Source: Candidatus Altiarchaeota archaeon (GTDB lineage Archaea > Altiarchaeota > Altiarchaeia > IMC4 > SCGC-AAA252-I15). Taken from it: DNA of 64,000 nt. The stretch lies in contig JAZDMS010000023.1 in assembly GCA_043800705.1 (NCBI GenBank), forward strand, positions 32,001-96,000, read 5' to 3'. Shown here one piece after another: positions 12,099-30,576 of the stretch. Position 1 is the stretch's first letter. Each line of letters begins with the position of its first letter. Both the position numbers and the translations under genes were made by a program. The notes under the pieces are model-generated. The model had not been told where the DNA came from, did not search any database, and saw only the letters and a list, made by a program, of their open reading frames with translations.

Positions 12099-15000
12099 AT
12101 GCCATCCAATGCTGAGAAGACCATCCAGAGTAGGCAGAATGCGGAAATGCTCGAAAGAAGCTTAGCCGATCTGTCCCAAGAGCTGATGCAGAAGGGATAC
12201 TTCGACAACCTAAAGGTCAGGGTGCCTGCGAGGGAGTTTTTCAGGAAATACGGTCGTCCTGAGACATATGGCCGTGTGGCCGAGGACCTCAGGGAGAACG
12301 GAATCGACATAGAGTCCGCGGAAGTGAACTTCCTTGACACGATAGCGCCGATCCTCAAGCCCGGGGAATTCGAGTCCCTGAGCAAGTCGAAGCGTGTGAC
12401 GCATGCGATCAACGTCTACCGCCCTGGGGAACAGGCTCCATGCAGGCAGTACTATACCAAGATACCCAATACCGCGGAAGAGCCACAACGGAGCCTGATA
12501 GCGATGGATGCAGGCCTTGGGCCGAAGGTCCTCCTTGCCGAATCCATCCCCTTCGGGGGGGACGAGGACAAGCCGGCTGGCATGATAATAGAGGAGCGGA
12601 TGGAGCGGGGCGGCAGCCTCATGGACCGGGGCAGATACCTCGACCAGGGGCTAATGGATGAGCAAAGACAGTCCCTATTCGGGAAATCAGAGGTCGAGAT
12701 ACTTGGCGAGAGGCTCGCGGAAAAGGTCGACACGATGGTGAATGTAGGCCTGCTCTACGATTTCTCCCACAACCCGGACACTCACATCAGATTGAAGGGC
12801 AGGGGGGCCAAAATGGACCTCGTGTTGTTGGATTGGAGCAACTCCCGCAAGATAGACGTCTCCACGATGGACTACGAGACAGCCAAGGAGATGCTGGCAT
12901 CCCAGATAAAATATCTCATCCGACTATTCCACACGAAGCCTCCGCACTCGAAAAACCACCTGGCTCTTAGGGCGTTCGACAGGAGGCTGAGGGAGCTTGG
13001 AAACCAGACCACAGGCACTGTCAGGCTGGGCGGCCAGACCGCCTCAATAAAGAAGACGCTATACGACGAGGCGCTCGATCGGACCCGGGCCATGCTCGTG
13101 ACAGGAACCGACGTCAGCCACAGGACGCACATGCGAAGGCTTTACGATTATGCCGAAGGTAAGCTCACGCCAGACAAGACGGATTATACGGAGCGGGAGG
13201 CCGCGATACACGACAAGACCCAGCTCATATACCAGAGGCTCGAGGAGTCTGGCGTCCCGTGGGTGCGGGACGAGTCCATGGCACGGGCCATAGCGCAGAA
13301 CATCCTGGACCGCACGAACCTCGACGAGTTCAGGGCATATGACTTCAAAACATACCATAGCCAGTCAAACCAGCAGGTATACCTCAAGGTTCACTCGAGG
13401 GAGAAGGAATGGCTCACGGACCCGCCACTCGGATTGCAAAGCTGGGGCGAATATGCCCACCGCAGGGGGGGCCTCCAATACCGCATGAGGGTATGCAAAA
13501 GCGAACGGGAGGCCGAGAACCTCACGTTCGCAGGTGCGCAGGGCCTCAGCCCATGCATTATGCGGATCGAAAAGGACGAGAAGAGGGTGCTTGCTGAGGT
13601 ATTGGACCATGACACGAGCATCGACCTATGCGGGCCCCTGCTGAGCCGCGTCGAATCCGCAAAAGTCGGAACACGGTTGGCGATGAAGCTGGCGATGATG
13701 ACGCGCGAGGGGGAACGCCTCCCCTACTGCCCCAGGGACTACCCGAAACAATTACTACTGCCAATAGACCAACGGGGAATCGACGTCCTGTTCGCGCCCT
13801 GGGTCAAGACTAGCGATTCCTCGGATCCGAAATGGCATGACCAGGTTGTCGGCCATATCCGGGGCATAGCATCCGTTTGCAGGCAGAATATCGCCCACGG
13901 GGACATAGCGTGGAAGAGGTTCGAGACATGCCTGAGGGAGGAAGCCCCCATCGAGGCCCCCCGGATGGATTTTTTCTCAAATGCCATCGACCAAGCAAAG
14001 CAATCCCTCACCTCAGGCGGCCAGGAAAATGACGAATGGGCGGCCTTCTTCGAAAAGGCGAAGACCGCCACATATCTGAAGCCCAAAAGGAGAAAGCAGC
14101 AGACGACCTGGATAGAGCTTCTGGAACGGGACAACCTGTCAAGATGCGTCCCGACAACGTACTCGACGGCGACATTGAAGAAGGCCAAGGGGTTGGACAA
14201 GCTCATAACCCTGGCGGTAGAGCACCTGGTCAAATCCGGCAAAGTCGACGACGTGCAGGCCGACGCATCCCATGTGCACGTGTTCATACCGGATGAAAGG
14301 GATGCCGAGCTCAGGGTCAAGCTGGGGCTTGAAGACCTACGGGCGGGATACATAGTCTTCGACCTCTATCAGGTCTCCCGCAGGAAGTCCACCCGCCCGT
14401 TCAAGGCGGCGGCATTCCGCTTCTCCTCGAAGACAGTTCTGGGCGAAGTGGGATATTTTCAGACGATGGCCGACTTCAGGGCAGAGCATCGGGACCTCGT
14501 CGATCCTCCTGCGCTCAGGGGATACATCGTGGACGGGACGACGAGGCGGATCGGGGGCGAGTCGGTGGGGGTATGGTGGGACAGGACATACTTCGGTCAG
14601 ATGCCAGCGTCGATGGCGGTCAAGAGAGTAGCCGACCTCCAAGCCGACGATGCCAACCACCTGAAGAGGGAATTGGAGATGGAGCGCGCATGGATGAGGT
14701 TCCTGACGATCACCAGGGACTCGTACACCAACTGGCACACCATCATATCCCGGTGCAAGAAGGCCGTGGATGACCAGAACCCAGGCGCGGAGCCGGGAAT
14801 AACCGAGGCCCAGTACAACCTTGTCGTGGGTTTGGAGAGGGATACCCGGAAGAACCGCCCGTTCGGCCTCACCGCCATAGCGGACCCCAACTGCGAGCGG
14901 ATAGTGGACTTCTCGCCTCAGGAGCCGGGCCCGGGGTTCGGGTTCTACAAGCAGTACGGACTTGAGGAGCTATTGGACAAGACAATCGAAAACTGCAATC

Positions 15001-16763
15001 CAGACTTCACAACTAACATCAAGAAGATGCTTCGCGCCCAGGAAGTCATGGACAAGGTCAGGGCAGCTGAGATCGAGGCGGGAAAACCCCTCGATGACCG
15101 GGCCGTGGAAGAGATCGCGAAGCAGGTGAACGAGCCGCAGCTTGCCGGGAATAAGCCGAGCGATTACATAACGAACGTCGTCTTCATGCAAAACGGCAGC
15201 AACTACGTTGTCGAGATGGAGGTGATGCTGAAGGACGGGCAGAAGCGGAAGCTGATAGTCAAACACACGGACATATTGGCGGAAGCCTACATGTCCATCC
15301 TCGGAGCCCACTGCGGCATCCGCACGCCATTCGTCAGGCAATGCGACCAGAACTACGGACTGCAGTCCATCTGTCCCGGTACCAGGTTCGCAGACCTAAC
15401 TCCGGAGACGGTCCAAACCTACGCGCAGGACATCTACCACATTCTCGGCCACAATTTTGGGGTAAGCGGCATATTCGGCGACGGCCACGATAAAAACACC
15501 TTCCTCGTCACCGGCGATATTGCTGCGAACTGGAGGGGATACAGGATAGACACCGAACACAGGACATGCTGCTTCGACATCGGCGAAGCCGGATACCTAT
15601 ACGAGGCCAACAACGCGGAGAATACCCTGAAAGGCCTGTGGATGGACCCTCTGCAGAGGTTCAAACACTGGCCGTTCTTCCAGGACGGGATCCTTTCACT
15701 GTCGACAATCCTCCACAGCAACGGCGGCATGCAGAAGGCCCTGGAAGTCCTTGAGGAGATGAGGAAGGACCCGCGTATCATGATCCCCGAGGGCACGCCG
15801 GAGGCCGACCTGCAAAAGACGAAGCGGCACCAATACCAGCCGGAGGAGATAGACGAATACAAAAGGAGGCTTCAGCTCACGCCGGACCAGCTGGAAGGTA
15901 GGTTCAACCGGGTCGCGGTAGCGGTCGAGGACATACAGATGGCAAGCTATCCGGACCAGAAAAACCTCCTACCAAGGCACCACCTGATCCACATCAACAC
16001 CCTACTGGAACAGATCCTTCCGGAAAACGGGCAGATCAAGCCCGAGGAGATCCTCTCGACGAGCAACAAGCGGACCAACTCCATCAAGGCATACCTCCTT
16101 GGGATGACCTATGCGGTAGAGACGCTCCTCGGGGATGTCGATGTCACATACGAGGGCGAGATAGGGTCACTAAGCCCCGGCGTCCGTGCGGCAGTCAGAC
16201 GACTGTCCATGTTCGGTCTTCCTGAAAAGATGCAGAAGAACCGAGCAGAGAACTGGGTAAAACAATACGTGATCAGCCGGGAACTGATGGACAAGGCGGC
16301 AGAGGAGAGGAGTCAGGACACGACTCCCGCCAGGGGAAGGATAATGGCGCAGATAAAGAAAATGACTGGGGAGCGGGCGTCGCTGTGGGAGGTGAACGAC
16401 ATGATCGGGGCATATGCCGGATCCAGGTCCGCTGGCGAGAACGACCTTCGTGACTTCATCGACGGCGCCAACCTCGTCATGGGATGGGTCAGGGAGAGCG
16501 TAAACAGCGTCGCGAAGAACGCCCGCCGTGTCGGCATAGACGACGCCAATGCGATGAGGGAGAGGATAAAGGAGCCGGTAGAGGATAACCTGAGGGAGGC
16601 GCTCGAATTCATGCGCGAAAACGCCCTCGACTTCAGGCGTGTGCACCCATACGAGCAGCTCGTGTTCAAACCCGCCGGATATTACCTGCTCAAATGCTCC
16701 TCGGCCGAAAGGGCTGAGGTCGCTCCCTACATGAGGGAGCTGAAGGAGGTGTGCAGGCGATGA
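12099..16763 (+). CDS. Large hypothetical protein (1554 aa) with up to three kinase-like domains
   Basis: Long ORF with host-like codon usage; motifs YYTK..GLGPKV..LVLLDW, a degenerate repeat GLSPCI, and LIVK..E..GDGHDKNTFL..YRIDTE. Confidence 0.7.
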   Translation: MPSNAEKTIQSRQNAEMLERSLADLSQELMQKGYFDNLKVRVPAREFFRKYGRPETYGRVAEDLRENGIDIESAEVNFLDTIAPILKPGEFESLSKSKRVTHAINVYRPGEQAPCRQYYTKIPNTAEEPQRSLIAMDAGLGPKVLLAESIPFGGDEDKPAGMIIEERMERGGSLMDRGRYLDQGLMDEQRQSLFGKSEVEILGERLAEKVDTMVNVGLLYDFSHNPDTHIRLKGRGAKMDLVLLDWSNSRKIDVSTMDYETAKEMLASQIKYLIRLFHTKPPHSKNHLALRAFDRRLRELGNQTTGTVRLGGQTASIKKTLYDEALDRTRAMLVTGTDVSHRTHMRRLYDYAEGKLTPDKTDYTEREAAIHDKTQLIYQRLEESGVPWVRDESMARAIAQNILDRTNLDEFRAYDFKTYHSQSNQQVYLKVHSREKEWLTDPPLGLQSWGEYAHRRGGLQYRMRVCKSEREAENLTFAGAQGLSPCIMRIEKDEKRVLAEVLDHDTSIDLCGPLLSRVESAKVGTRLAMKLAMMTREGERLPYCPRDYPKQLLLPIDQRGIDVLFAPWVKTSDSSDPKWHDQVVGHIRGIASVCRQNIAHGDIAWKRFETCLREEAPIEAPRMDFFSNAIDQAKQSLTSGGQENDEWAAFFEKAKTATYLKPKRRKQQTTWIELLERDNLSRCVPTTYSTATLKKAKGLDKLITLAVEHLVKSGKVDDVQADASHVHVFIPDERDAELRVKLGLEDLRAGYIVFDLYQVSRRKSTRPFKAAAFRFSSKTVLGEVGYFQTMADFRAEHRDLVDPPALRGYIVDGTTRRIGGESVGVWWDRTYFGQMPASMAVKRVADLQADDANHLKRELEMERAWMRFLTITRDSYTNWHTIISRCKKAVDDQNPGAEPGITEAQYNLVVGLERDTRKNRPFGLTAIADPNCERIVDFSPQEPGPGFGFYKQYGLEELLDKTIENCNPDFTTNIKKMLRAQEVMDKVRAAEIEAGKPLDDRAVEEIAKQVNEPQLAGNKPSDYITNVVFMQNGSNYVVEMEVMLKDGQKRKLIVKHTDILAEAYMSILGAHCGIRTPFVRQCDQNYGLQSICPGTRFADLTPETVQTYAQDIYHILGHNFGVSGIFGDGHDKNTFLVTGDIAANWRGYRIDTEHRTCCFDIGEAGYLYEANNAENTLKGLWMDPLQRFKHWPFFQDGILSLSTILHSNGGMQKALEVLEEMRKDPRIMIPEGTPEADLQKTKRHQYQPEEIDEYKRRLQLTPDQLEGRFNRVAVAVEDIQMASYPDQKNLLPRHHLIHINTLLEQILPENGQIKPEEILSTSNKRTNSIKAYLLGMTYAVETLLGDVDVTYEGEIGSLSPGVRAAVRRLSMFGLPEKMQKNRAENWVKQYVISRELMDKAAEERSQDTTPARGRIMAQIKKMTGERASLWEVNDMIGAYAGSRSAGENDLRDFIDGANLVMGWVRESVNSVAKNARRVGIDDANAMRERIKEPVEDNLREALEFMRENALDFRRVHPYEQLVFKPAGYYLLKCSSAERAEVAPYMRELKEVCRR

Positions 16764-17149: not shown

Positions 17150-18439
17150 TCACCAGCAGAGTCCCTCGTATTCCACGCCCTTAGGCAGGAGATCCCTGTT
17201 TACGATGTGCCGTGAGTCGAAGACCCTCTTATGCCTCATGTTCGACACGTCCAGGGTCTTGAACTCGTCCCACTCGGTCATGACGACGGCCAGGTCGGCG
17301 TCCTTCAACGCCTCCTTCATAGAATGGCAGTAATGTATCCCAGCCCCAAAGACCTTCCTCGCGTTCTCGGCGGCCTTGGGGTCGTATGCCGCGACCTTCG
17401 CGCCCTCCCCCAGGAGGCTTTCGACTATCGGTATCGCCGGGCTTTCGCGCATGTCGTCGGTGTTCGCCTTGAAGGCGAGGCCGAGGACCGCGACCTTCGC
17501 GCCCTTGAGCCTATACCTCTCCCTGAGCATGTCCATCATGACCTTCGGCTGCAGCTCGTTGACTTTGAGGACGCTGTCCAGGAGGATGGTCTCCACGCCC
17601 ACGTCGCAGGCCTTGTGGACGAGTGCCTTCACGTCCTTGGGGAAGCAGCTGCCCCCGAAGCCGGGGCCTGCAGAGATGAAATGGGGGCCGATGCGGTGGT
17701 CGAGGCCTATTCCCCTGGAGACGTCGTATACGTCGACTCCGAGCTTTTTGCAGATGTTGCCGACTTCGTTGATGAACGAGATCTTCGTTGCTAGCATGCT
17801 GTTGGCGGTGTATTTTATCATCTCCGCGGTCTTCAGGTTGACTCTCAGCACCGGCGCCTTGAACTTGTAGTAGAGCCCTTCGACCGCGTCGCCGGATTTC
17901 TCGTCGATGGAGCCGATGACTATCCTGTCGGGGTTCATGAAGTCCTCGATGGCGACTCCCTCCCTCAGGAATTCGGGGTTCATGACGACCCCGAAGTCTT
18001 TGCCCGCCTTTTTTCCGGATTCCTTCTCGAGTGCGGGGATGACGTGGTCCTCAGTGGACCCGGGTATGATGGTGCTTTTCACGACTACCACATGGTAGTC
18101 TTTTTTCTTTTTGAGTATTTTCCCGAGCTGGGCGCTCACTTCCTTGACATATCTCAGGTTGATGCTGCCGTCGTCGTCGGACGGGGTTCCGACGCAGATG
18201 AACGTGATGTCAGTCTTCAGGACGCTCCCCTCAAGGTCCAACGTGGCCTTCAGGGATCCGGGGACGACGTGGTCGAGTATCTCCTTCAGCCCCTTCTCGT
18301 ATATGGGCGGCTTCTTGGTGTTTATCATGTCGACTTTGTCCTTGTCTATGTCGACGCACAGGACCTCGTAGCCCTTTTCTGCGAAGCCAGCAGCGGTTAT
18401 AAGGCCCACGTAGCCGGAACCCACGACCGATATCCTCAT
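17150..18439 (-). CDS. ugd: UDP-glucose 6-dehydrogenase
   Basis: GSGYVG, CVGTP, KST, NPEFLREG, GFGGSCFPKD, DDMRESP. Confidence 0.95.
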   Translation of the reverse strand: MRISVVGSGYVGLITAAGFAEKGYEVLCVDIDKDKVDMINTKKPPIYEKGLKEILDHVVPGSLKATLDLEGSVLKTDITFICVGTPSDDDGSINLRYVKEVSAQLGKILKKKKDYHVVVVKSTIIPGSTEDHVIPALEKESGKKAGKDFGVVMNPEFLREGVAIEDFMNPDRIVIGSIDEKSGDAVEGLYYKFKAPVLRVNLKTAEMIKYTANSMLATKISFINEVGNICKKLGVDVYDVSRGIGLDHRIGPHFISAGPGFGGSCFPKDVKALVHKACDVGVETILLDSVLKVNELQPKVMMDMLRERYRLKGAKVAVLGLAFKANTDDMRESPAIPIVESLLGEGAKVAAYDPKAAENARKVFGAGIHYCHSMKEALKDADLAVVMTEWDEFKTLDVSNMRHKRVFDSRHIVNRDLLPKGVEYEGLCW

Positions 18440-18507: not shown

Positions 18508-18960
18508 ATGACAAAGATTGACGATGTCGATTTGAGGCTTCTTAAGGAGCTGCAGAAGGACGGCAGAAAGAGCTTCCGCGAGATTGCGGAAAAGCTCGAC
18601 GTGGCCGAAGGCACGGTCTACAACCGCGTCAACAAACTCAAGGAGGAGGGCGTCATAAAGAACTTCATAGTCGACATCGACTATTCCAAGCTCGGATACG
18701 ACCTCACGACCGTGATAGGGGTGAGGGTCAGGGGCGGGCATCTGCCGGAGATAGAGGAGAAGATCGCGAAGGAGAAGTGCGTCACCGCAGTCTACGACAT
18801 CACAGGCGAATACGACGCCATCGTTGTCGCGAAGTTCCCCGGCCGCGACGAGCTCAACAAGCTCGTGAAGAAGATCAACTCCATCGACAACGTGGAGCGG
18901 ACCTATACGATGGTCGTCCTCAACGTGCTGAAAGAGCAGCACGGCGTCGAACTCAACTGA
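18508..18960 (+). CDS. Lrp/AsnC family transcriptional regulator
   Basis: IDDVDLRLLKELQKDGRKSFREIAEKL HTH; ITGEYD RAM domain. Confidence 0.95.
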   Translation: MTKIDDVDLRLLKELQKDGRKSFREIAEKLDVAEGTVYNRVNKLKEEGVIKNFIVDIDYSKLGYDLTTVIGVRVRGGHLPEIEEKIAKEKCVTAVYDITGEYDAIVVAKFPGRDELNKLVKKINSIDNVERTYTMVVLNVLKEQHGVELN

Positions 18961-19011
18961 ACCTCATGGACTTCCGGGCTAGTTCTTATTGACGCAGATA
19001 TATTGGTTAAC

Positions 19012-19380
19012 ATGGCTTCTTACGGGGCGCTGCCCCTCAAATGGGGGCTGGCATTGGGCCTTCTGGTGTTGTTGGCGGTTTTAGCCTACCAGTCATTCTA
19101 TAAGGATGACAACCCTCATCCCTGCACTTTGGACTCCGACTGCATGATGACGCGTTTCAACTGCAAAAGCAGGACGGAGAACTATTTGGAGACGAGGATA
19201 GTCTACAGCAACGGCTTCTCGAATCCGGTCTGCAAATGCATCCAGCGCGAATGCCTTACGTTATCGTTGGACAAGGAAGGGAAATACGGGGTACGTGTGG
19301 ATAAGGGCCATATGGAGTATGTCGAGGCGGGGCGGCTTCAGTCCGTCATGAACAGGACAGTGATGGATCTGAACAGGTGA
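19012..19380 (+). CDS. Small membrane-anchored Cys-rich hypothetical protein
   Basis: N-terminal TM, CTLDSDC and CKCIQREC motifs. Confidence 0.6.
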   Translation: MASYGALPLKWGLALGLLVLLAVLAYQSFYKDDNPHPCTLDSDCMMTRFNCKSRTENYLETRIVYSNGFSNPVCKCIQRECLTLSLDKEGKYGVRVDKGHMEYVEAGRLQSVMNRTVMDLNR

Positions 19381-19481
19381 CTCATCACGCGCTGGCGGAT
19401 TCCCAAAACGAATCTAGTCGGGCGAATTACTACTTTTGACTAGACTCCTTTTTATCCCACCTTTATCCTGTCCTTTTTAGG

Positions 19482-19715
19482 ATGGTCGAGACGTTCGCGA
19501 CTTCGCAGTACGAGGAGAAGTTTTTTGGGAACCTCACGCTCGCCCAGAGCCTGATGATGCTGGCTCTGTCAGTCCCCGGGGTCTTCATGGCTGCCAAAGG
19601 ATTCTCCGCCCCCATCATACTCGGCTACGGCGGATTCTGCGTCGTTGCATATGCGAGGCTGATTACCTTCGGCGAGGACCGAAGACGCAAGTCTTTCTAT
19701 TGGCCAGTGGGTTAG
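19482..19715 (+). pseudogene. Truncated duplicate of the 5' end of the PrgI-VirB4 gene
   Basis: 19482-19654 matches 22498-22670 with 9 mismatches in 173 nt (counted by eye), then diverges and stops. Confidence 0.85.
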
Positions 19716-19786
19716 TCGGGGGCACAAAACCCTCAAACAGCCGCATTGGATAAGACAAGGTCCCGGCCTGTGGGGAGACAGAATAC

Positions 19787-20206
19787 TCACTTGAATATGT
19801 CCCGCCCGCTCTTCAAATATCTCTCTTTCTGTATTACGTCCTTCACCCTGTTCACGAGGTCGTCGTTGTCATACGGCTTTGTAATGTAGTCTTCTGAGCC
19901 TATCGCCCCCATCTTCTGGCTTAAGTCGTCAGTTTTGGCGGTTAAATAGACTATCGGTATACCCTTCATTACAGGGTCTTCCTTCATCTTAGACGCTACT
20001 GTCCACCCGTCCATCTCAGGCATCATAACATCCAATAATACGATGTCCGGCGGTGACTCAAGCATCGCCTCCAGCGCCTTTTTACCGGACGTCAATCCAA
20101 TCACTTCAAGTTTAGGCTCCCTTTTTTTAAAGGCTGACTTAACACTCGCGACTATGTCCTCGTTGTCGTCCACAACCATAACCTTACCGTCCATAAAATC
20201 CACCAT
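19787..20206 (-). CDS. Single-domain response regulator (CheY-like)
   Basis: VMVVDDN, DIVLLDVMMPEMDG, LTAK, ITKPY. Confidence 0.95.
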   Translation of the reverse strand: MVDFMDGKVMVVDDNEDIVASVKSAFKKREPKLEVIGLTSGKKALEAMLESPPDIVLLDVMMPEMDGWTVASKMKEDPVMKGIPIVYLTAKTDDLSQKMGAIGSEDYITKPYDNDDLVNRVKDVIQKERYLKSGRDIFK

Positions 20207-20242
20207 TCAATGCTATTATCAATTTAATTATACCCCTATATA

Positions 20243-22195
20243 TCACATGGGAAGTGTGAATTTAACAGTAAGGCCCTTCCCAAGGCCATCGCTTTCAACC
20301 CAAATCATCCCTCCGTGTTTTTCTATGATGCGCTTGCATATGGCCAAGCCGAGTCCTGCCGAATGATTATGTCTGCTTGAGTCGACCTGGTAGAATTCGC
20401 TGAAAAGGAATTTAATTTTGTCTTTTTCGACACCTATCCCCCCATCCGACACGCTCACCTCGACTTTTCCCTCTCTCACAACCGCCTGGAAGCTTATGTT
20501 CCCGCCTTCCGGCATGAATTTCAGGGAGTTATTTACAATGTTGTTGAACACCTCGACAATCCTTAGCCTGTCGGCCACAACGGCAGGTATGCCCTCTGGG
20601 ATTCTGTCAACGAATCTTATGTTGGTGTCCCTGAACGCTTTTTCATTGTTTGTTATCACCTCCTCGACCACTTCGCGAAGACTCATGGGTCTCATATTGA
20701 ATTTCACAGAACCCGAGTCGAGCCTGGCTAAATCAAGGGTGCTCACCACCAGGTCCCTCATGTAGTAGATGTTCTTCATCGCAATCTCGAATAGCCTCCT
20801 ATCCTCCTCGCCATCCAGTTTCGTCTTCAGGTCCGGGAGAATCGATATCAGCGGGGTCAACGGCGTCCGCAGGTCGTGGCTCAGCTGGTTAACGAACTGG
20901 GTCTTCGTGTCCAAGAGTTCCTGAACCCGGTTCTTCTCCACCTCAAGCTGTTTGGTGCGTTCAACAACCCTCTCCTCGAGTTTTTCCGTATACTCCTGTA
21001 TCTTATCCTCCTTCTCCCTCAGTTCGGTGAAGTCCTCTATCGTCTCGATTACCGCCATCAACCCATCCTGGGGATCCCGTATGGGCGCAGCCGTGAATGA
21101 CAGATACTTTGCCCCCTTCATCCTCCAGCCTTCGGCGTGGTATGCCCCCTGGATGAGCTTTGATTTACTGTGGTTCTCATACAACGCAGGTATCCTCCCC
21201 ACATCACCGTCTACTAACACGTCAGCCAAGGTCGGGTGATATTCCCCATAGAAGGGCATCCAATGGTTGCATGTGCCGATTATGTCTCCCTTCTTCAAAC
21301 CGGTTAACTCCTCCATGGCATTGTTCCAGAACATCACCCTATGCCTCCCATCTATGACGAACAAGGGGATGCTTGAGCAATTAATCACCATCCTGGTCAG
21401 CTCCTCCGCAGCCTTCCTCTCCGTTATATCCTGCACTAGCCCGTCATAGGATATGATATTCCCCCCGCCGTCAAGGTGTTGTACCGCCGTGTTCCTAATC
21501 CATCTGATTCTCCCATCTTTTCGCACGATGCGGTGTTCCAAGGGCTTAACTATCTCCCCCGATACAATCCGGCTACTGTATTCCCTCACACTCTCCCTTT
21601 CCTCCTCAGGCACCATCTGTATCCAAAGGTACGGGTTCTCCATGAACTCGTCGGCCGTATAACCCGTGACTGCGACCGAGGCGTGGCCATGGATTGTCTC
21701 AACCGGCCTGCCCCCTTCAACAACCACGGTGTATATGTAGTCTGTAACTGACTCTATGATGTGCCTGTATCTCTCCTCGCTTTCTTGGATTTCCCTGCTC
21801 AATACACCCTCGACGTCCCTCTGGGTTATGATTCCGGCAATCCTCCCGTCTTCGACTATGGGCAGCCTCCTGAAACCCCCCTCAGACATTATCCTGGATG
21901 CTTCGCTGATTGTGGTATCCGGGTTGACTGTCACCACCGGAGACTTCATCACATCCCCTGCCTTCACCTCGGACGGATTTTTGTTCTCCGCGACTATTTT
22001 ATCTGAAAGGTCCCTCTCAGTCAATATCCCCAAAATCCTCCCGCCTGAGGCGACGATGACAGACCCGATGTTTTTATCAGACATCAGTTTCGCAGCTTCC
22101 TGGACGCAGGATCCAGACTCGACAGTGTAGACATTATGCGACATAATGTCCCCAACGACCTTAAAAAACCCCGCCCTTTTACTGATACTGTCCAA
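20243..22195 (-). CDS. Sensor histidine kinase CBS-CBS-PAS-PAS-HisKA-HATPase
   Basis: CBS pair (GILTERD, GIITQRD), PAS/PAC, H-box SHDLRTPL, N-box NNSLKF, G boxes DGGIG and GLGLAI. Confidence 0.92.
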   Translation of the reverse strand: MDSISKRAGFFKVVGDIMSHNVYTVESGSCVQEAAKLMSDKNIGSVIVASGGRILGILTERDLSDKIVAENKNPSEVKAGDVMKSPVVTVNPDTTISEASRIMSEGGFRRLPIVEDGRIAGIITQRDVEGVLSREIQESEERYRHIIESVTDYIYTVVVEGGRPVETIHGHASVAVTGYTADEFMENPYLWIQMVPEEERESVREYSSRIVSGEIVKPLEHRIVRKDGRIRWIRNTAVQHLDGGGNIISYDGLVQDITERKAAEELTRMVINCSSIPLFVIDGRHRVMFWNNAMEELTGLKKGDIIGTCNHWMPFYGEYHPTLADVLVDGDVGRIPALYENHSKSKLIQGAYHAEGWRMKGAKYLSFTAAPIRDPQDGLMAVIETIEDFTELREKEDKIQEYTEKLEERVVERTKQLEVEKNRVQELLDTKTQFVNQLSHDLRTPLTPLISILPDLKTKLDGEEDRRLFEIAMKNIYYMRDLVVSTLDLARLDSGSVKFNMRPMSLREVVEEVITNNEKAFRDTNIRFVDRIPEGIPAVVADRLRIVEVFNNIVNNSLKFMPEGGNISFQAVVREGKVEVSVSDGGIGVEKDKIKFLFSEFYQVDSSRHNHSAGLGLAICKRIIEKHGGMIWVESDGLGKGLTVKFTLPM

Positions 22196-22497
22196 GCAGA
22201 CCCCCTATGGATAATAATCAACGGTGAGTGATAAAAACCAAAATACTCCGACATGCCCTCACTTGTAACGTGCATAACCTGGCCCTGCTGAAGTCTAGAC
22301 CATGAATATAGCCCCGCCTTTCTTCTTCAAGCCGTCGACGGTTACAGTACGGGCTAAATCATCCCTACTTTTGGCCGCAGTATCTGATTTTTTCCCATAT
22401 TCCTGTAAAAGAATAATGCCGTGCGGTGTCCGCTCTATTACTACCTTTTACTGCACCTTTTTTTAACCTATTGGGCAGGTATCCTCTTGGGATCGGG

Positions 22498-25400
22498 ATG
22501 GTTGAGACGTTCGCGACTTCGCAATACACGGAGAAGTTTTTTGGGAACCTCACGCTCGCCCAGAGCCTGATGATGCTGGTTCTGGCCGTCCCCGGGGTCT
22601 TCATGGCAGCCAAGGGATTCTCCGCCCCCATCATACTCGGCTACGGCGGATTCTGCGTCGTTGCATACGCCGGCATCGCATTCTACGGCCTCGACGAGCA
22701 GGCGCTGCTTTGGCTCGGGTTCGCCTCGTCGAGGAGGAGGCTCCTTTGGAAGACGAAGGAGATGGAGGAGTTCATCGGCGTACAGGACATAGACACAAAC
22801 GTGGTGTTCACTAGGGACGGCCGGCTCCTATCTGTCGTGAAGGTTCTGCCGAAGGATCTCGGAGGCCTCGGGGAATCCGACATAGAGCGCGTTCTTGCGG
22901 GATATGGCGTGTTCCTCAACGAATTGAGCACGAACATCCAGATCATCATGTCCTCGACGGAGATAGACGTCGAAGGCTACCTCCAGAGGCTGAAGGAGAA
23001 GGTGCTCCTTTGCGGGAAGCCTCAGCGGCTTGCGTACTTCGAGCACTTCGCATCCTTCATGCGCGCCGTGGTGGAGTGCAAGACCGTCACCGACAGGGAC
23101 TATTACATTGTCGTCACCCAGCCTGAAGCCCGCGATCGGAGACGGGCGCTGGAGGACCTGGACACGAAGACCCGCAACATCGTCGCATCACTGGCGGATG
23201 CGGGCATCGACTGCGAAAGGCTCGAAACCGAAGCCCTCATCAGCTTCTTCACCAACTTCTACACCCCGAGATTCAGCCTCATTGGCGACCCATGGACTGC
23301 AGTGACCTTCCACGACAATGTCCGGGGGATGCTGGAGGCGGAGTCGTACCTGGAGCCGTTCAAGGCAGGGCGGCGTTTTACGCGCGGCGGCAGGGACTTT
23401 ACCCGAACGCCGAGGGAGCGGAGGACATCCGTGATCGAGGAGCTGATGCCCTCGTCTGTCGACATATTCAAGGACCATGCCGAGGTGGAGAAGTTCCACA
23501 GAGTCCTCTTCACTGTCCGGTTCCCAGCCTCAGTCCACCCGGGCTGGCTGACGAAACTCATACGGCAGCCCATAGACTTCGACATAGTCTTCCACATACA
23601 CCCCCTCAGCCAGAAGACCAGCGTCGACTACCTCCAGCACGAGATAACGAAGCTGGAGACGGACGTCACCACCAAGGAAAGGGAGGGCCTCATCGTCGCC
23701 GAGCGCGACAGGGTCAACCTGCAGCGGGTGAGGGACCTCCTCGGCAGGGTGTCGCGCGACGAGGAGAAATGCTTCGACGTCGCCCTCTACGTCAACGTCA
23801 AGGCCTACACGCTCAAGGAGTTGGACCTTGCGGTGATGCGGATCAAGGACGTCATCGAGGGGATGAACGCCCATGTGAAGGTGGCCAACTGGGAGATGGC
23901 GGACGCGCTCAGAAGCTGCTTCCCCCTGGCCGAGGACAGGCTCGGCGAACGCAGGGACAAGCTTTTTCCATCCAGCGCCGTAAGGGACTCCTATCCGTTC
24001 ATCCTCTCCAGCCTCGAAGACCGGGGACATGGAGCGGTCGTCGCGGGATACAACCAACTCAACGGGATACCCGTTCTCCTTGACATTTTCCGGCAGCCGA
24101 ATCCACACGTCCTGGTCCTCGGAAGCTCGGGCAGCGGCAAGTCCTTCCTAGTGAAGAAGCTAGTCCTGGCCGAGGCGATGCAGGACGTCGACATATTCGT
24201 CATCGACCCCCAGGGCGAATACGAGAAGGCGATATCGGCGATGGGCGGCCACGTCATACGCCTGGCCCAAGACTCCCCCTCAGTCATCAACCTCTTCGAC
24301 ATAATGGGGGGGACATACGACGAGCGCAAAGGCAGCATAAAGGCGTTCTTCAACATCATCCGCCAGGACATGGATGATAATCTGGCGGGATCTGCGGTCG
24401 GGATAGTCGACAAGATGATAGACAACGCCTACCGGAAGGCGGGGATATACGCCGACGACCCGTCGACGTGGGATCGGCCTGCGCCCACTTTCAGCGACGC
24501 ATACCAGGCCCTAAGCCAGTTCGCTTCGGAGTCGAGCTCGAACGCGGAAAAGTGGAAGAAGACCGCTGCGGAGGCGCTCCTTTCGCATCTGAGTCCGTTC
24601 GTCCATGGAGACCTCCGCTACCTCGACCGGGCAACGAGCGTCGATCTGAGGGGGAAAAACATCATCTCCTTCGACATTTCACAGGCCAGCCCGTTCAAGC
24701 CCCGCGAGAGGGCTCTTGCGCTCTTCATAGTATTCGACCACATATATTCCCACGTCAGAAGGCAGGAGAGGCTAAGGAGGAAGATGGTAGTCGTCGACGA
24801 GGCGTGGAGCGTCTTCGAAAACAACCAGGACGACCTCGGCCCGATAGTCCGCACAGGCCGCAAAGACAACCTGTCCGTCGTGATGATAGACCAGAACGTC
24901 GAAGACCTGCTCACAAAGGACGGGGACGGACGGGCCAGGGGGCACGTCATCCTCAACAACACCTCGACGAAGTTTATCCTCCGGCAGGAGGCTGCATGCC
25001 TGACGCTCGTGTCCGAGAAGTTCGCGCTGACGGAGAGCCAGAAGGCGTTCATCCAGACTGCAGGCCCGGGCGACGTGCTCCTGCTGACGCCTTCCGTGAA
25101 GCTCCCCCTGTTTGTGCTCGCCAGCCAGGAGGAGAAGAAGATGCTGTCCACAAGCCCGGAAGAGCACGCCAAGCAGCATGCGCCGAAGGAGTTGTCCGAA
25201 TTCGACAAGTCGAAGGACCTGGTCCTGCCGCAGCGCATCCTCTCAAACGAGGAGATGCGGCGGCTCAGGGCTGAAGGATACGTCCAGGTCGCAGACGCAG
25301 GCCTTGGCGTTGAGCCTTCCGTATACTTCGTCAAGGGGCAGGAGGGCGAGAATCCCCTCCATGCCCTGCGGAAAATACTGATATTCAAGGAGATCGAACG

Positions 25401-25740
25401 CCTGAGGAAACTGACGGGAATCCCGTCAGAAGAGCTGAACCTGAGGATGCACTCCCGGCTCATGCCGGACCTCACAGTCTGCCTCCCCGGCGGCTTTGCC
25501 GCCGCGATAGAGGTACTTGAGGCCGATGACTTCGAAACAGGGAACGCCGACTCGGACAACAAGATAAGACGGCTGGGAAACTACTCCAAAACCGTGCTTA
25601 TAGCCTTGGACGAAGATGTCAAGGCGGCGGCGGCATCAAGGGGGTATGGGGACGTCATTTTGTCTCATCAGGCGGTATCCGCCTTGGAGGACCTGTTCGG
25701 GGTGGGGAAAGCGCATGGAACCAGAGAAGCTACTGGATGA
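22498..25740 (+). CDS. PrgI-like membrane domain fused to VirB4/TraE-like ATPase
   Basis: N-terminal YTEKFFGNLTLAQ plus two TM (PrgI-like); Walker A GSSGSGKS, IDPQGEY, Walker B VVVDEAW, GRKDN, ILNN. Confidence 0.8.
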   Translation: MVETFATSQYTEKFFGNLTLAQSLMMLVLAVPGVFMAAKGFSAPIILGYGGFCVVAYAGIAFYGLDEQALLWLGFASSRRRLLWKTKEMEEFIGVQDIDTNVVFTRDGRLLSVVKVLPKDLGGLGESDIERVLAGYGVFLNELSTNIQIIMSSTEIDVEGYLQRLKEKVLLCGKPQRLAYFEHFASFMRAVVECKTVTDRDYYIVVTQPEARDRRRALEDLDTKTRNIVASLADAGIDCERLETEALISFFTNFYTPRFSLIGDPWTAVTFHDNVRGMLEAESYLEPFKAGRRFTRGGRDFTRTPRERRTSVIEELMPSSVDIFKDHAEVEKFHRVLFTVRFPASVHPGWLTKLIRQPIDFDIVFHIHPLSQKTSVDYLQHEITKLETDVTTKEREGLIVAERDRVNLQRVRDLLGRVSRDEEKCFDVALYVNVKAYTLKELDLAVMRIKDVIEGMNAHVKVANWEMADALRSCFPLAEDRLGERRDKLFPSSAVRDSYPFILSSLEDRGHGAVVAGYNQLNGIPVLLDIFRQPNPHVLVLGSSGSGKSFLVKKLVLAEAMQDVDIFVIDPQGEYEKAISAMGGHVIRLAQDSPSVINLFDIMGGTYDERKGSIKAFFNIIRQDMDDNLAGSAVGIVDKMIDNAYRKAGIYADDPSTWDRPAPTFSDAYQALSQFASESSSNAEKWKKTAAEALLSHLSPFVHGDLRYLDRATSVDLRGKNIISFDISQASPFKPRERALALFIVFDHIYSHVRRQERLRRKMVVVDEAWSVFENNQDDLGPIVRTGRKDNLSVVMIDQNVEDLLTKDGDGRARGHVILNNTSTKFILRQEAACLTLVSEKFALTESQKAFIQTAGPGDVLLLTPSVKLPLFVLASQEEKKMLSTSPEEHAKQHAPKELSEFDKSKDLVLPQRILSNEEMRRLRAEGYVQVADAGLGVEPSVYFVKGQEGENPLHALRKILIFKEIERLRKLTGIPSEELNLRMHSRLMPDLTVCLPGGFAAAIEVLEADDFETGNADSDNKIRRLGNYSKTVLIALDEDVKAAAASRGYGDVILSHQAVSALEDLFGVGKAHGTREATG

Positions 25741-26509
25741 ACTGTCGGCCTACTATTTCGGCCTCGGAAAGGAGGGACGGGGAGTCCTGAAGACGTTCGC
25801 ATGGATGATGTTCCTCGCCCTTCTGACCAACCTGGCCTCCCGCCTGCCCGCTAAAAAAGACGAGGACCACCTCAAGGTCGTCCTTGCGGAACCAGTCGGC
25901 GTCTGGGCCGACAGGCAGCGTATGAAGACTGTGACGCAACCGCAGGTGAAGACTGAGCCGCGCACACGGTCAGAGAAACTTACACTCTCCGCTTCCAAGG
26001 CTTTAAGAAAACTCAGCATCCCCCCCTTTAAGGTGAAAATTCCCGTCCGGCTGAAGACCGCGACCGCATATCCTCCGCCGATTGGTCAAAAGACGCCGGA
26101 TATGTCCAAATCCACACTGGGCGGACGCAACGGCGCATCGGAAACGGAACCGTTCGATCACCCCCCGTGCATGCCGGCGAATGCCGTCGCGGAGATCGAC
26201 TTCATACGGGCCGCAGAAAGGCGCGACATCATCGCATTGAAGGCCGCATTCGGGACCGTGCACGTCCCGTCGGATTCATATGATGAATCGGCGCGTCTCT
26301 TGGAAGCGCTGGGGCTGGAAGCCGCCGACTATCTGGCGCGGGTCCCACCCGGTGCGGACGGGTCGCCGTATCCGAGCGTCGACGCCGCTAAACGCCTCAG
26401 GGCGGTCGTCCTGTCTGACTCGCCGAACCTCGGGAGGATATGCGAAGCCGGCGGGATCGCAACATGGACCTCCCGGCAATGGAGGCTTCTGGCCCCGAAG
26501 CCATGCTAG
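25715..26509 (+). CDS. Hypothetical membrane-anchored protein, C-terminus possibly a degenerate PIN-like fold
   Basis: Overlaps the VirB4 stop; one TM; VHVPSDSYDE...VVLSDSPNLGRICEAGGI. Confidence 0.55.
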   Translation: MEPEKLLDELSAYYFGLGKEGRGVLKTFAWMMFLALLTNLASRLPAKKDEDHLKVVLAEPVGVWADRQRMKTVTQPQVKTEPRTRSEKLTLSASKALRKLSIPPFKVKIPVRLKTATAYPPPIGQKTPDMSKSTLGGRNGASETEPFDHPPCMPANAVAEIDFIRAAERRDIIALKAAFGTVHVPSDSYDESARLLEALGLEAADYLARVPPGADGSPYPSVDAAKRLRAVVLSDSPNLGRICEAGGIATWTSRQWRLLAPKPC

Positions 26510-26512
26510 ACA

Positions 26513-27436
26513 ATGGACCCAACGTTGAGGCAGCTCAGAGGACAGATCGGCTCGAGGATAGTCGGCAACGAAGAGGCCATAGAACACATCCTCATATGCC
26601 TCATCGCCCGCGGCCACCTGCTCCTGGAAAGCCCCCCGGGCCTCGGGAAAACGGAGATCTGCAAAAGCCTGGCTGAATCAGTGGATATGGGGTTCAAGAG
26701 GATACAGTGCACCCCGGACCTGACCCCGCAGGACATCATCGGGCAATCCCGCACAGACACGGAGACCGGCATGAGGACGCTGGACAAGGGCCCCCTTTTC
26801 ACCAACATCCTCCTGGTCGACGAGATCAACAGGGCCCAGCCGAAGACGCAGTCCGCATTCCTCGAGGCGATGGCTGAGGAGACTGTGACCAGCTACGGCA
26901 GATCATATCGGCTGCCGGAGCCCTTCATGGTCCTTGCCACCCAGAACCCTGTCGAATATGACGGGACATACCGCCTCCCCGAAGCGCAACAGGACAGGTT
27001 CCTGCTAAAATCCCACATGACCTATCTGGAAGGCGAGGACGAGAAGTCCGCGATCAAGGCGTCCATGTCCCGGCGGAAGGTGAAGCGGCTCTGCACCTCC
27101 CAGGACGTCATCGCTATGCAAAGGCATGCGGCGGAAACCGTGTCGGTGGAAGACCGTACCATGGACTACATAATCTCATTGGTCTCAGCGACGAGACACA
27201 GGAATGAGGTGATGGTGGGCGCAAGCACGAGGGCCGCCGTCTTGTACACGCAGGCTGCGAAGGCCCGCGCCTACATGGCGGGAAGGACGGAGGCCTGCTC
27301 AGACGACGTGAAGGCGCTGGCCCATCCGGTCCTTCGCCACAGGCTCCTCATGAACCCGGACGCAAAAAACTTCGGATACACGTCCGACGACCTCATAGAC
27401 GACATACTCCGAAAGACGAAATCCGGGGGTGAATAG
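26513..27436 (+). CDS. MoxR family AAA+ ATPase
   Basis: HLLLESPPGLGKT, RIQCTPDL, DEINRA, ATQNPVEYDGTYRLPEAQQDRF. Confidence 0.95.
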   Translation: MDPTLRQLRGQIGSRIVGNEEAIEHILICLIARGHLLLESPPGLGKTEICKSLAESVDMGFKRIQCTPDLTPQDIIGQSRTDTETGMRTLDKGPLFTNILLVDEINRAQPKTQSAFLEAMAEETVTSYGRSYRLPEPFMVLATQNPVEYDGTYRLPEAQQDRFLLKSHMTYLEGEDEKSAIKASMSRRKVKRLCTSQDVIAMQRHAAETVSVEDRTMDYIISLVSATRHRNEVMVGASTRAAVLYTQAAKARAYMAGRTEACSDDVKALAHPVLRHRLLMNPDAKNFGYTSDDLIDDILRKTKSGGE

Positions 27437-28821: not shown

Positions 28822-30576
28822 ATGCTCGACAGCCCCTCCGTCGACGGTGACGCCTCCAAGGGTAAGACCCTATATGACAGAATATACGACTTTGCAGTAC
28901 AAGCCGAGAAGCCGATAAACATCAAGGACATCCAAGACAATTTCCAGCTTGACGAGATGGCTTTCAGGAATGTCATCAGCACATTCACAAACGCCCACGT
29001 CTTCGAAGTCAAAGAGAACAGGATAATGCAGGTCAATCCCCCATTCGGCCTCGTCCGGTACGAGAACGTCGAACCGATCAAGGTGCTCAGGGAGGAACAG
29101 GTAGAGTGGCGGGGTCTGGCATTCCATGTGCAGGTGGTTGAGGCGAAAAACGAGGCCGTGCCGGTCTACTACATCCCGCCTTTGAAAATCGGAAACGGTG
29201 TGAGGATCCGCCTCAAATGCATATTCAACAGCCTCTCAAGCGCCCACGGAAAGAAGCCCCAGATGGACGGGGAATTCGAACACCCGACGGACTCATCCAG
29301 GCACCTGGCCCAGAAAGCCATAGAGGACGAATTTAACGTCCGCCCAGACATGTCGGACAGGCTATCCGACGCGCTCATATACGAATTCGCAGAAGTGGGC
29401 TGCCTGAGCATATTCCTCGCAGACCGGGACATAGAGGAGATAGTATTCAACGGAACATCAGCGGCGTCGCTGTACAGCTGCACCCACGGCTGGCTGAAAA
29501 CAAATGTCTATCCCACACGGGAGGAGTCGCTCTTCGAGATAGCGACCCGGATGGCACGCGTTGTCCAGAAGGAGATAAATTTCAGCAACCCGATAGTCGA
29601 GACGAGGCTCCAAAGCGGCGACAGGGTAAGCACGCTCCTGAACGCGGTCGCTCCCCAAGGCACGATAATAACCATACGGAAATTCTTCCGCAACCCCACA
29701 ACCATAGTGGGGCTGATTAAAGAACTCAATAGCGTAAGCATAGACATCGCAGCCCTGCTCTGGTTCGCCGTGGAATACGAACTTAACATACTCGTGGCCG
29801 GCGGCTCGGGCTCTGGCAAGACCACGCTCCTGAATGCCGTCTGCAACCTCATACCATCGTCAGTCCACGTCCTCAGCATAGAAAGCCTGAGGGAAATACA
29901 CATCCCCGAATCTAGGTCCTGGAACTGGCTCTCCCTCCAAACAAGGGAAGACCCTAACGTGGAACCGATCACTAGCTCAGACCTCATGGCAGTCAGCCTC
30001 AAGATGCGGCCGGAACGGATAATACTCGGCGAAGCCGTCCGACCGGAAGACATAAGGAGCCTCTTCCAGGCCATGCAGGTCGGCCACCCCGTCTTCTCAA
30101 CCATCCACGCCACCACGTCCAACGAGCTCATACGCAGGGTGATGGACCCGGCATATGGCATCCCCAAGACGGATATCAGCTCAATCGACCTGGTCGTGGT
30201 GATGTACCATGACGTGAGGGAGAGAACTCGTAAAATACTCGAGGTCTCGGAGATAAGATACGAAAGCAACCTGTCAGAAGCAGAGGCCATATCGCACATA
30301 TACCGGTACTCCCAAAAATCGAAGACATACCTGAACATTTCCAAACCGAGGAAGATATTCGAAAAAGTCTCTATGAAGACCGGGATGACCGCGGAGGAGA
30401 TGGAGACGGACATAGGAGAGAAGAAGAAAGTCATACAGTGGGCCATCGACAGGCACATCACCCAGGTTAAAAACTTCGAGATGCTTGTTCAGGAGTACTA
30501 TAGCAACCGAAAAGCTCTGATGGCGCAAATCCAGGCGGAAAATCCCGGCAAAGAGCAAGACGCCCCCCAAACTTAA
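28822..30576 (+). CDS. Type II/IV secretion / pilus assembly ATPase (VirB11/FlaI family)
   Basis: DIEEI, ITIRKF, Walker A GGSGSGKTT, KMRPERIILGE, STIHA. Confidence 0.9.
   Translation: MLDSPSVDGDASKGKTLYDRIYDFAVQAEKPINIKDIQDNFQLDEMAFRNVISTFTNAHVFEVKENRIMQVNPPFGLVRYENVEPIKVLREEQVEWRGLAFHVQVVEAKNEAVPVYYIPPLKIGNGVRIRLKCIFNSLSSAHGKKPQMDGEFEHPTDSSRHLAQKAIEDEFNVRPDMSDRLSDALIYEFAEVGCLSIFLADRDIEEIVFNGTSAASLYSCTHGWLKTNVYPTREESLFEIATRMARVVQKEINFSNPIVETRLQSGDRVSTLLNAVAPQGTIITIRKFFRNPTTIVGLIKELNSVSIDIAALLWFAVEYELNILVAGGSGSGKTTLLNAVCNLIPSSVHVLSIESLREIHIPESRSWNWLSLQTREDPNVEPITSSDLMAVSLKMRPERIILGEAVRPEDIRSLFQAMQVGHPVFSTIHATTSNELIRRVMDPAYGIPKTDISSIDLVVVMYHDVRERTRKILEVSEIRYESNLSEAEAISHIYRYSQKSKTYLNISKPRKIFEKVSMKTGMTAEEMETDIGEKKKVIQWAIDRHITQVKNFEMLVQEYYSNRKALMAQIQAENPGKEQDAPQT

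Follow-up and report, generated by a model that had tools for sequence, protein, structure and literature searches.

Here, we describe a 64,000-nt stretch of the genome of a Candidatus Altiarchaeota archaeon (contig JAZDMS010000023.1, positions 32,001 to 96,000; from here on, the window), in which the promoter-like region and the first 58 codons of a gene for a VirB4-like ATPase are present twice. The two copies bracket an island with an intact two-component gene pair; the downstream copy runs on into the intact ATPase gene, and the upstream copy breaks off after 58 codons and ends in a 77-amino acid (aa) open reading frame (ORF). This arrangement is probably the scar of a one-off insertion by homologous recombination, by which a two-component cassette came to lie beside the VirB4-like gene.

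The 5' end of a VirB4-like gene is present in two copies

The features of the duplication and of the island are as follows.

19426 to 19481, plus strand: promoter-like region, upstream copy (gapped blastn match to 22437 to 22497; the motif ATTACTAC is common to the related loci G003, G001, and L030)
19480 to 19654, plus strand: direct repeat, upstream copy, with the start codon and the first 58 VirB4-like codons (alignment and repeat finding)
19482 to 19715, plus strand: 77-aa ORF consisting of 58 VirB4-derived codons and an unrelated tail of 19 codons (translation)
19663 to 19727, no strand assigned: segment of ~65 nt immediately 3' of the receiver gene; read in antisense, it makes up the tail of the 77-aa ORF (78% identity to C19:6478-6544, an intergenic region elsewhere in this genome)
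19787 to 20206, minus strand: receiver-only (CheY-like) response regulator, 139 aa (Pfam Response_reg PF00072, E 3.1e-23; no output domain)
20243 to 22195, minus strand: cytoplasmic histidine kinase, CBS-CBS-PAS-PAS-HisKA-HATPase_c, 650 aa from a TTG start (Pfam)
22196 to 22436, no strand assigned: island-specific spacer from the kinase start to the downstream promoter copy, without similarity to the upstream regions of relatives
22437 to 22497, plus strand: promoter-like region, downstream copy (gapped blastn and shared motif)
22496 to 22670, plus strand: direct repeat, downstream copy, which runs on into the intact VirB4-like gene (alignment and repeat finding)
22498 to 25740, plus strand: VirB4-like ATPase, 1,080 aa, with an N-terminal hairpin of two transmembrane (TM) helices, VirB4 N- and C-domains, and a C-terminal extension of ~200 aa (NCBIfam, Pfam, and PDB matches)

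Repeat finding identified a direct repeat of 175 nt with copies at 19480 to 19654 and 22496 to 22670 that are 94% identical and lie 3,016 nt apart from start to start, and pairwise alignment agreed. A search of the whole assembly, a metagenome-assembled genome of 2.0 Mb in 43 contigs that is 87.6% complete, returned two copies of the repeat, both of which are those in the window. An earlier reading of the window, made without database searches (the sequence-only reading), had described a 173-nt repeat with 9 mismatches; the repeat itself was recovered, while the mismatch count was off by one, as we counted 10 mismatches in the interval 19482 to 19654 (11 over the first 58 codons). The 3' end of the repeat is closed by a perfect run of 53 nt. 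We considered this run as a crossover core or conversion tract, but it was not significant (P = 0.19).

The zone of 94% identity sets in 2 nt 5' of the ATG, in agreement with the sequence-only reading, which placed the onset nearly at the start codon; weaker similarity, however, continues further upstream. Using gapped blastn, we found that the similarity reaches to 19426 and 22437 in the two copies, with 199 of 234 positions identical overall. The upstream extension is about 55 nt long, has ~65% identity with a 5-nt indel, and contains the 8-mer ATTACTAC and, 3' of it, a TATA-like box rich in T. Both elements also precede the orthologous gene in two related genomes (G003 and G001) and in the metagenome contig L030. 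Because the similarity reaches into this promoter-like region, the duplicated unit appears to comprise this region together with 58 codons and to measure about 230 bp, with the promoter role suggested by position and conservation. The idea that the insertion placed virB4 behind a different promoter is therefore not quite right, since the promoter-like region is itself part of the duplication, with its copies diverged from each other.

The upstream copy ends at a putative breakpoint within the coding sequence

To the left of the island, the VirB4-like sequence stops abruptly. Beyond codon 58, alignment scores to orthologues were 52 to 56 for the downstream copy and 7 to 8 for the upstream copy. 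The tail of the 77-aa ORF instead matches the second locus in the same genome (C19:6478-6544), and at each of the two loci, the ~65-nt segment directly follows the 3' end of a gene, with the same orientation relative to that gene. Residual VirB4 homology past +174 in the upstream copy was rejected on the basis of these scores and of the match of the tail to another locus. That the tail matches another intergenic stretch near a gene 3' end argues that it is accidental antisense of the 3' flank of the receiver gene and that 19654/19655 is the true breakpoint, both as judged from the sequence. The ~65-nt segment was not found in 40 relatives. It contains a short inverted repeat that could form a hairpin. 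Weak matches of the tail on contig C35 were considered as a spaced array and rejected because they represent a short, tandem low-complexity repeat matched by chance.

As the sequence-only reading had suggested, the upstream copy could encode a 77-aa peptide with two predicted TM helices. The ORF is intact and had been annotated as a protein by the source gene caller, 57 of 68 residues match the VirB4 N terminus, and the ATG, both hydrophobic helices (residues 18 to 36 and 45 to 63, by hydropathy only), and the positively charged stretch after the second helix are retained. By hydropathy only, the peptide and the N terminus of the ATPase thus have the form expected for PrgI/VirB3, i.e., a short two-helix membrane hairpin encoded beside or fused to VirB4. 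The description of the peptide as PrgI-like is weakly supported: the Pfam model PrgI (PF12666) matched the 77-aa ORF with 15.1 bits (E 0.035) and the N-terminal 111 aa of the VirB4-like protein with 17.8 bits (E 0.005), both below the cutoff of 27. A search of 5.8 billion proteins identified no stand-alone homologue (42 to 135 aa) of the 77-aa ORF, and in a search of 1.84 billion representatives, the only two other matches were to the N termini of long proteins of 638 and 1,095 aa.

The cassette appears to be a lineage-specific insertion in a variable spacer

The island lies between flanks that are conserved in relatives. These flanks, together with one further ORF of the spacer, are as follows.

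17150 to 18439, minus strand: UDP-glucose dehydrogenase (UGDH; Pfam)
18508 to 18960, plus strand: Lrp/AsnC-type regulator, conserved left flank (Pfam AsnC_trans_reg 4.7e-17 and HTH_24 1.6e-15)
19003 to 19380, plus strand: orphan 125-aa ORF with several Cys residues and one hydrophobic helix (residues 7 to 25)
25616 to 26509, plus strand: 297-aa ORF without a family match (o297), right flank, syntenic in relatives
26513 to 27436, plus strand: MoxR AAA+ ATPase, right flank (Pfam AAA_3 2.2e-54), syntenic in relatives

Five related loci could be assessed (G003, G001, G004 contig 33, G002, and metagenome contig L030); a sixth (G004 contig 26) ends 431 bp upstream and was left out of the cassette comparison. 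All five keep the order UGDH-Lrp-[gap]-VirB4-o297-MoxR, with the Lrp/AsnC regulator syntenic at 72 to 78% identity, and all five lack both two-component genes and hold no duplicate of the VirB4 5' end. In each of the six related loci, the 5' coding region of VirB4 is present as a single copy. With the cassette and the second 5' copy missing from all assessable related loci, the comparison argues that the cassette is a lineage-specific insertion in a variable spot, and the empty site in 5/5 loci bears out the proposal of a lineage-specific island in the sequence-only reading.

The gap between the Lrp and ATPase genes measures 84, 287, 814, 1,126, and 1,638 bp in the five related loci and 3,537 bp here, and its contents are mutually unrelated among loci. 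This range of lengths and the unrelated contents argue that the spacer is a variable hot spot, as seen at the sequence level in this genus. Among the spacers examined (L015, L016, L017, L019, and L030), we noted a 235-aa ORF in G001 and L030 and a 344-aa Cys-rich ORF in G004. Here, the spacer (18961 to 22497) carries the orphan 125-aa ORF and the two-component pair. The orphan ORF had no Pfam or NCBIfam match and was found in 0 of 40 relatives; we considered that it might be a relative of the Cys-rich ORF in the G004 gap and rejected this possibility, as the two have no similarity.

The cassette encodes an intact two-component pair of mildly atypical composition

The CBS-PAS-PAS histidine kinase and the CheY-like regulator that the sequence-only reading had placed between the repeats are both present and intact in Pfam searches. 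The kinase core was recognized by HisKA (9.9e-11) and HATPase_c (3.1e-24), and the kinase gene adjoins the receiver gene, as expected for a two-component system. The translated kinase contains no obvious hydrophobic helix; the source gene call for this protein is 633 aa.

Neither gene has a close counterpart in relatives. We found no full-length orthologue of the kinase in 40 relatives, and its best match in the search of 5.8 billion proteins had 59% identity over 46% of the query. The best relatives of the regulator are 45 to 49% identical and occur in other genera, while congeners reach only 35%; these best relatives sit on the same contigs as the best matches to the C-terminal part of the kinase. 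The four congeners contain no orthologue of either the kinase or the regulator, and the best pairs, 45 to 52% identical, are in other genera.

The island was described as visibly richer in A/T. Based on a profile of GC content, this shift is real, with a GC content of 49.8% in the island compared to 55.4% in the genome (7th percentile of 3-kb windows). For the kinase gene, among 710 ORFs of at least 350 aa, GC is in the 7th percentile and GC at third codon positions (GC3) is in the 24th percentile, and the shift is therefore mild. Native genes with similar GC3 exist, e.g., the gene for alanyl-tRNA synthetase. The percentiles of the kinase gene fall inside the span of native genes and support a foreign origin only weakly.

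The arrangement is probably a scar of homologous recombination

The duplicated 5' segment, the intact downstream gene, and the sharp, illegitimate left junction together point to homologous recombination through the 5' region of the VirB4-like gene. A cassette of ~2.8 kb with the intact two-component pair would have entered the variable Lrp/VirB4-like spacer, and the joining would have duplicated the promoter-like region and the first 58 codons of the ATPase gene. The downstream copy would have remained continuous with the intact 1,080-aa gene, while the upstream copy would break at 19654/19655, read 19 codons into the antisense of the 3' flank of the receiver gene, and stop, with the 77-aa ORF as a by-product. 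As an outcome, the ATPase gene would keep its own copy of the promoter, the other copy would drive the truncated ORF, and the kinase gene would be divergent from the ATPase gene.

Two routes could lead to this structure. When a circle integrates by one crossover, the insert ends up flanked on either side by a copy of the homologous segment, and the first route would be such a Campbell-type event with circular DNA bearing a homologous promoter and 5' segment. In the second route, one end of the insert would be joined by homologous and the other by illegitimate recombination; as described for homology-facilitated illegitimate recombination in PMC3240628, one-sided homology suffices to insert foreign DNA beside a conserved gene. 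Unlike the Campbell-type and homology-facilitated cases, which come from bacteria and laboratory constructs, the host here is an uncultured archaeon, and neither a donor nor an intermediate was seen. Given repeats of 175 nt with 94% identity and a perfect run of 53 nt, it would be physically plausible for the two repeats to recombine and thereby remove the cassette. Nothing suggests a programmed switch.

A structure of this kind could also be left by a site-specific integrative element that targets the 5' end of the VirB4-like gene and brings a replacement promoter and 5' end, with the integrase and most of the cargo since lost. The direct repeats do correspond to the end of a gene, their differences are scattered and for the most part silent, and the downstream gene is intact. 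There is a parallel in Escherichia coli K-12, in which, as described in part of PMC6379469, the prophage e14 in icd leaves a 163-bp pseudo-icd' duplication and Rac sits at the 5' end of ttcA. As in the accounts of e14 and Rac given there, a directly repeated gene end borders the insert on both sides, the copies differ slightly, and one gene is intact while the other is a pseudo-fragment. Unlike in e14 and Rac, the promoter and the 5' end are duplicated here, the 2.8-kb insert codes only for a complete two-component pair, and neither an integrase nor an att core is recognizable. No integrase, excisionase, replication, or structural gene was found in the island or nearby, and neither the island nor any of the 25 ORFs that were scanned from 8.5 to 39.9 kb encodes an integrase, transposase, or other recombinase domain. 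The left junction is inside the coding sequence with no recognizable core, and six related loci show no sign of repeated use of the site. The window contains no tRNA gene, no inverted repeats flank the island, and the sole match in an Rfam scan had an E value of 0.64, far below the gathering score. Based on these data, we consider an integrative element very unlikely.

We also considered that the assembly had joined two co-occurring strains into a chimera via shared words in the 5' region. In favor of such an artefact, the source is an 87.6% complete metagenome-assembled genome in 43 contigs, and the two copies agree perfectly over their final 53 nt, a length sufficient to mislead an assembler that works with short words. 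However, the copies differ at 10 positions and hence were not collapsed, and the window contains no N. Moreover, because the upstream copy runs into sequence that is not VirB4, a real molecule must exist that joins a VirB4 5' fragment to the 3' flank of the receiver gene. An artefact is, thus, most improbable.

The insertion scar that we favor is ordinary and of a common kind, not a new kind of element. If correct, it is a clean, dated example (synonymous divergence dS of about 0.19) of recombination bringing accessory genes into a conserved operon boundary in an archaeon. It would also illustrate that such an event can make a short membrane ORF from the start of a gene, and it points to the Lrp/VirB4-like spacer as a hot spot of variation within the genus.

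Divergence between the copies fits two histories

Several observations weigh against a recombination scar. First, we infer the recombination route from the geometry of the locus alone, and the junctions are known from assembled sequence alone, in a metagenome assembly of 43 contigs. Second, we obtained no donor, no circular form, and no same-species allele with an empty site; a metagenome scan yielded four loci that were all at most 66% identical and a scan of a genome collection yielded four loci that were all at most 61% identical. Third, the differences between the copies are mostly synonymous. Using the Nei-Gojobori method on the 58 codons, we obtained 7 synonymous (Sd) and 4 nonsynonymous (Nd) differences, a dS of 0.19, a nonsynonymous divergence (dN) of 0.03, and a ratio of the two (omega) of 0.16; the chance of so few nonsynonymous differences at omega = 1 is P = 0.006. 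If the duplication arose in place, the low omega is a hint of continuing selection on the upstream copy as a coding sequence. Finally, neither the ATG nor the ATTACTAC motif nor either helix has been lost from the upstream copy.

These observations raise the possibility of gene birth by partial duplication, in which a preserved copy of the ancestral promoter would drive expression of the 77-aa ORF as a stand-alone, functional membrane hairpin of the VirB3/PrgI type. This free hairpin would either associate with the VirB4-like motor or act as a competitor of the hairpin fused to it, and the duplication would be older, with both copies selected. In bacteria, VirB3 is found both free and fused to VirB4. 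In addition to the low omega over 58 codons, the retention of the start codon, both TM helices, the positively charged stretch after the second helix, and the promoter-like motif is in agreement with gene birth, as is the observation that the copies are not brand new (dS of 0.19 and promoter divergence of about 20 to 35%). By contrast, a low omega is equally expected if donor and recipient genes had diverged before the insertion, and a mixed model, in which one branch evolves neutrally and the other under constraint, was not rejected (P = 0.064). The stand-alone form was found in no other genome searched, and the tail of the 77-aa ORF appears to be accidental antisense. With two nonsynonymous changes in each copy, neither looks better kept. 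Altogether, we regard gene birth as unlikely. More specifically, the VirB3/PrgI-like hairpin could have been split off from the motor gene by fission, as a selected 77-aa gene under the retained promoter, while the CBS-PAS kinase and receiver pair was set divergent to the motor gene. We hold this fission to be quite improbable; if true, it would represent fission by duplication caught in the act and the recruitment of a sensor to a tamed machine derived from a type IV secretion system (T4SS) in Altiarchaeota.

The synonymous divergence of ~0.19 fits the divergence of roughly 20 to 35% of the upstream noncoding part, and the entire 230-bp unit can, therefore, share one age. Two attempts to assign the native copy gave no decision. 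First, when the nonsynonymous changes were polarized, two derived changes fell on each copy; for instance, codon 11 is AAG in most orthologues, GAG in the upstream copy, and ACG in the downstream copy. Second, the two promoter copies had a mutual score of 15 compared to 5.5 to 16 for either copy against the promoters of congeners, and the copies are thus no more alike than either is to those of congeners. The divergence data, therefore, fit an in-place duplication with both copies selected as well as an insertion by recombination between donor and recipient genes that had already diverged, and they cannot separate these two histories.

The VirB4-like ATPase is conserved in the order

The wider interest of the locus lies in the conserved, undescribed VirB4-like system alongside the cassette rather than in the duplication. 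The 1,080-aa protein matched the NCBIfam models CD1110 VirB4-like family (2.1e-65, 221 bits; cutoff 325) and TIGR00929 (1.5e-32, 113 bits; cutoff 643) as well as the Pfam models TraG P-loop (2.7e-22) and CagE_TrbE_VirB (0.004, below cutoff). Residues 512 to 880 matched the solved structure of a VirB4 C-domain (PDB 4ag5, 3.5e-17), with Walker A at residue 542 and Walker B at residue 763. Accordingly, the protein has both the Walker motifs and the likeness to a solved VirB4 that characterize the P-loop ATPase C-domain of the VirB4 family. Its N-terminal hydrophobic segments span residues 17 to 35 and 43 to 61 (hydropathy). The extension past the VirB4 C-domain, approximately residues 880 to 1,080 (25100 to 25740), had no family match.

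These matches and the N-terminal two-TM hairpin with its weak PrgI match resemble the VirB3-VirB4 and PrgI-PrgJ modules. Unlike in these modules, the matches to models with curated cutoffs all fell below threshold, and Pfam and NCBIfam scans of the ORFs around the ATPase gene recognized no VirB6, VirD4, relaxase, or pilin. The neighbors are the MoxR ATPase gene, ORFs without a family, and the gene for a FlaI-like ATPase, which do not amount to a T4SS context.

Of 41 genomes of the order searched, 40 contained the VirB4-like family. Its usual form is a gene for an N-terminal protein of ~300 aa plus a gene for an ATPase of ~770 aa, and the genome studied here has such a split copy (contig C15:55206-58347) in addition to the fused one in the window. 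Within the genus, the fused copy is syntenic with the MoxR ATPase gene. The VirB4-like ATPase gene is chromosomal and syntenic with housekeeping genes, and the window also holds archaeal housekeeping genes. A literature search found nothing that names both "Altiarchaeota" and "VirB4".

In loci of other genera (L008 to L014), several full-length matches to the fused ATPase cross one in-frame TAG or TAA. This stop codon may separate two adjacent genes in the same frame or may indicate a read-through or broken form. At 28822 to 30576 (plus strand), 3 kb downstream of the VirB4-like operon, we noted a gene for a 584-aa ATPase of the FlaI/VirB11 superfamily (NCBIfam FlaI 1e-58, below cutoff). On the other side of the locus, an ORF of 1,554 aa at 12099 to 16763 (plus strand), which had neither a Pfam or NCBIfam match nor a hydrophobic helix, is followed by a 124-aa ORF without a family.

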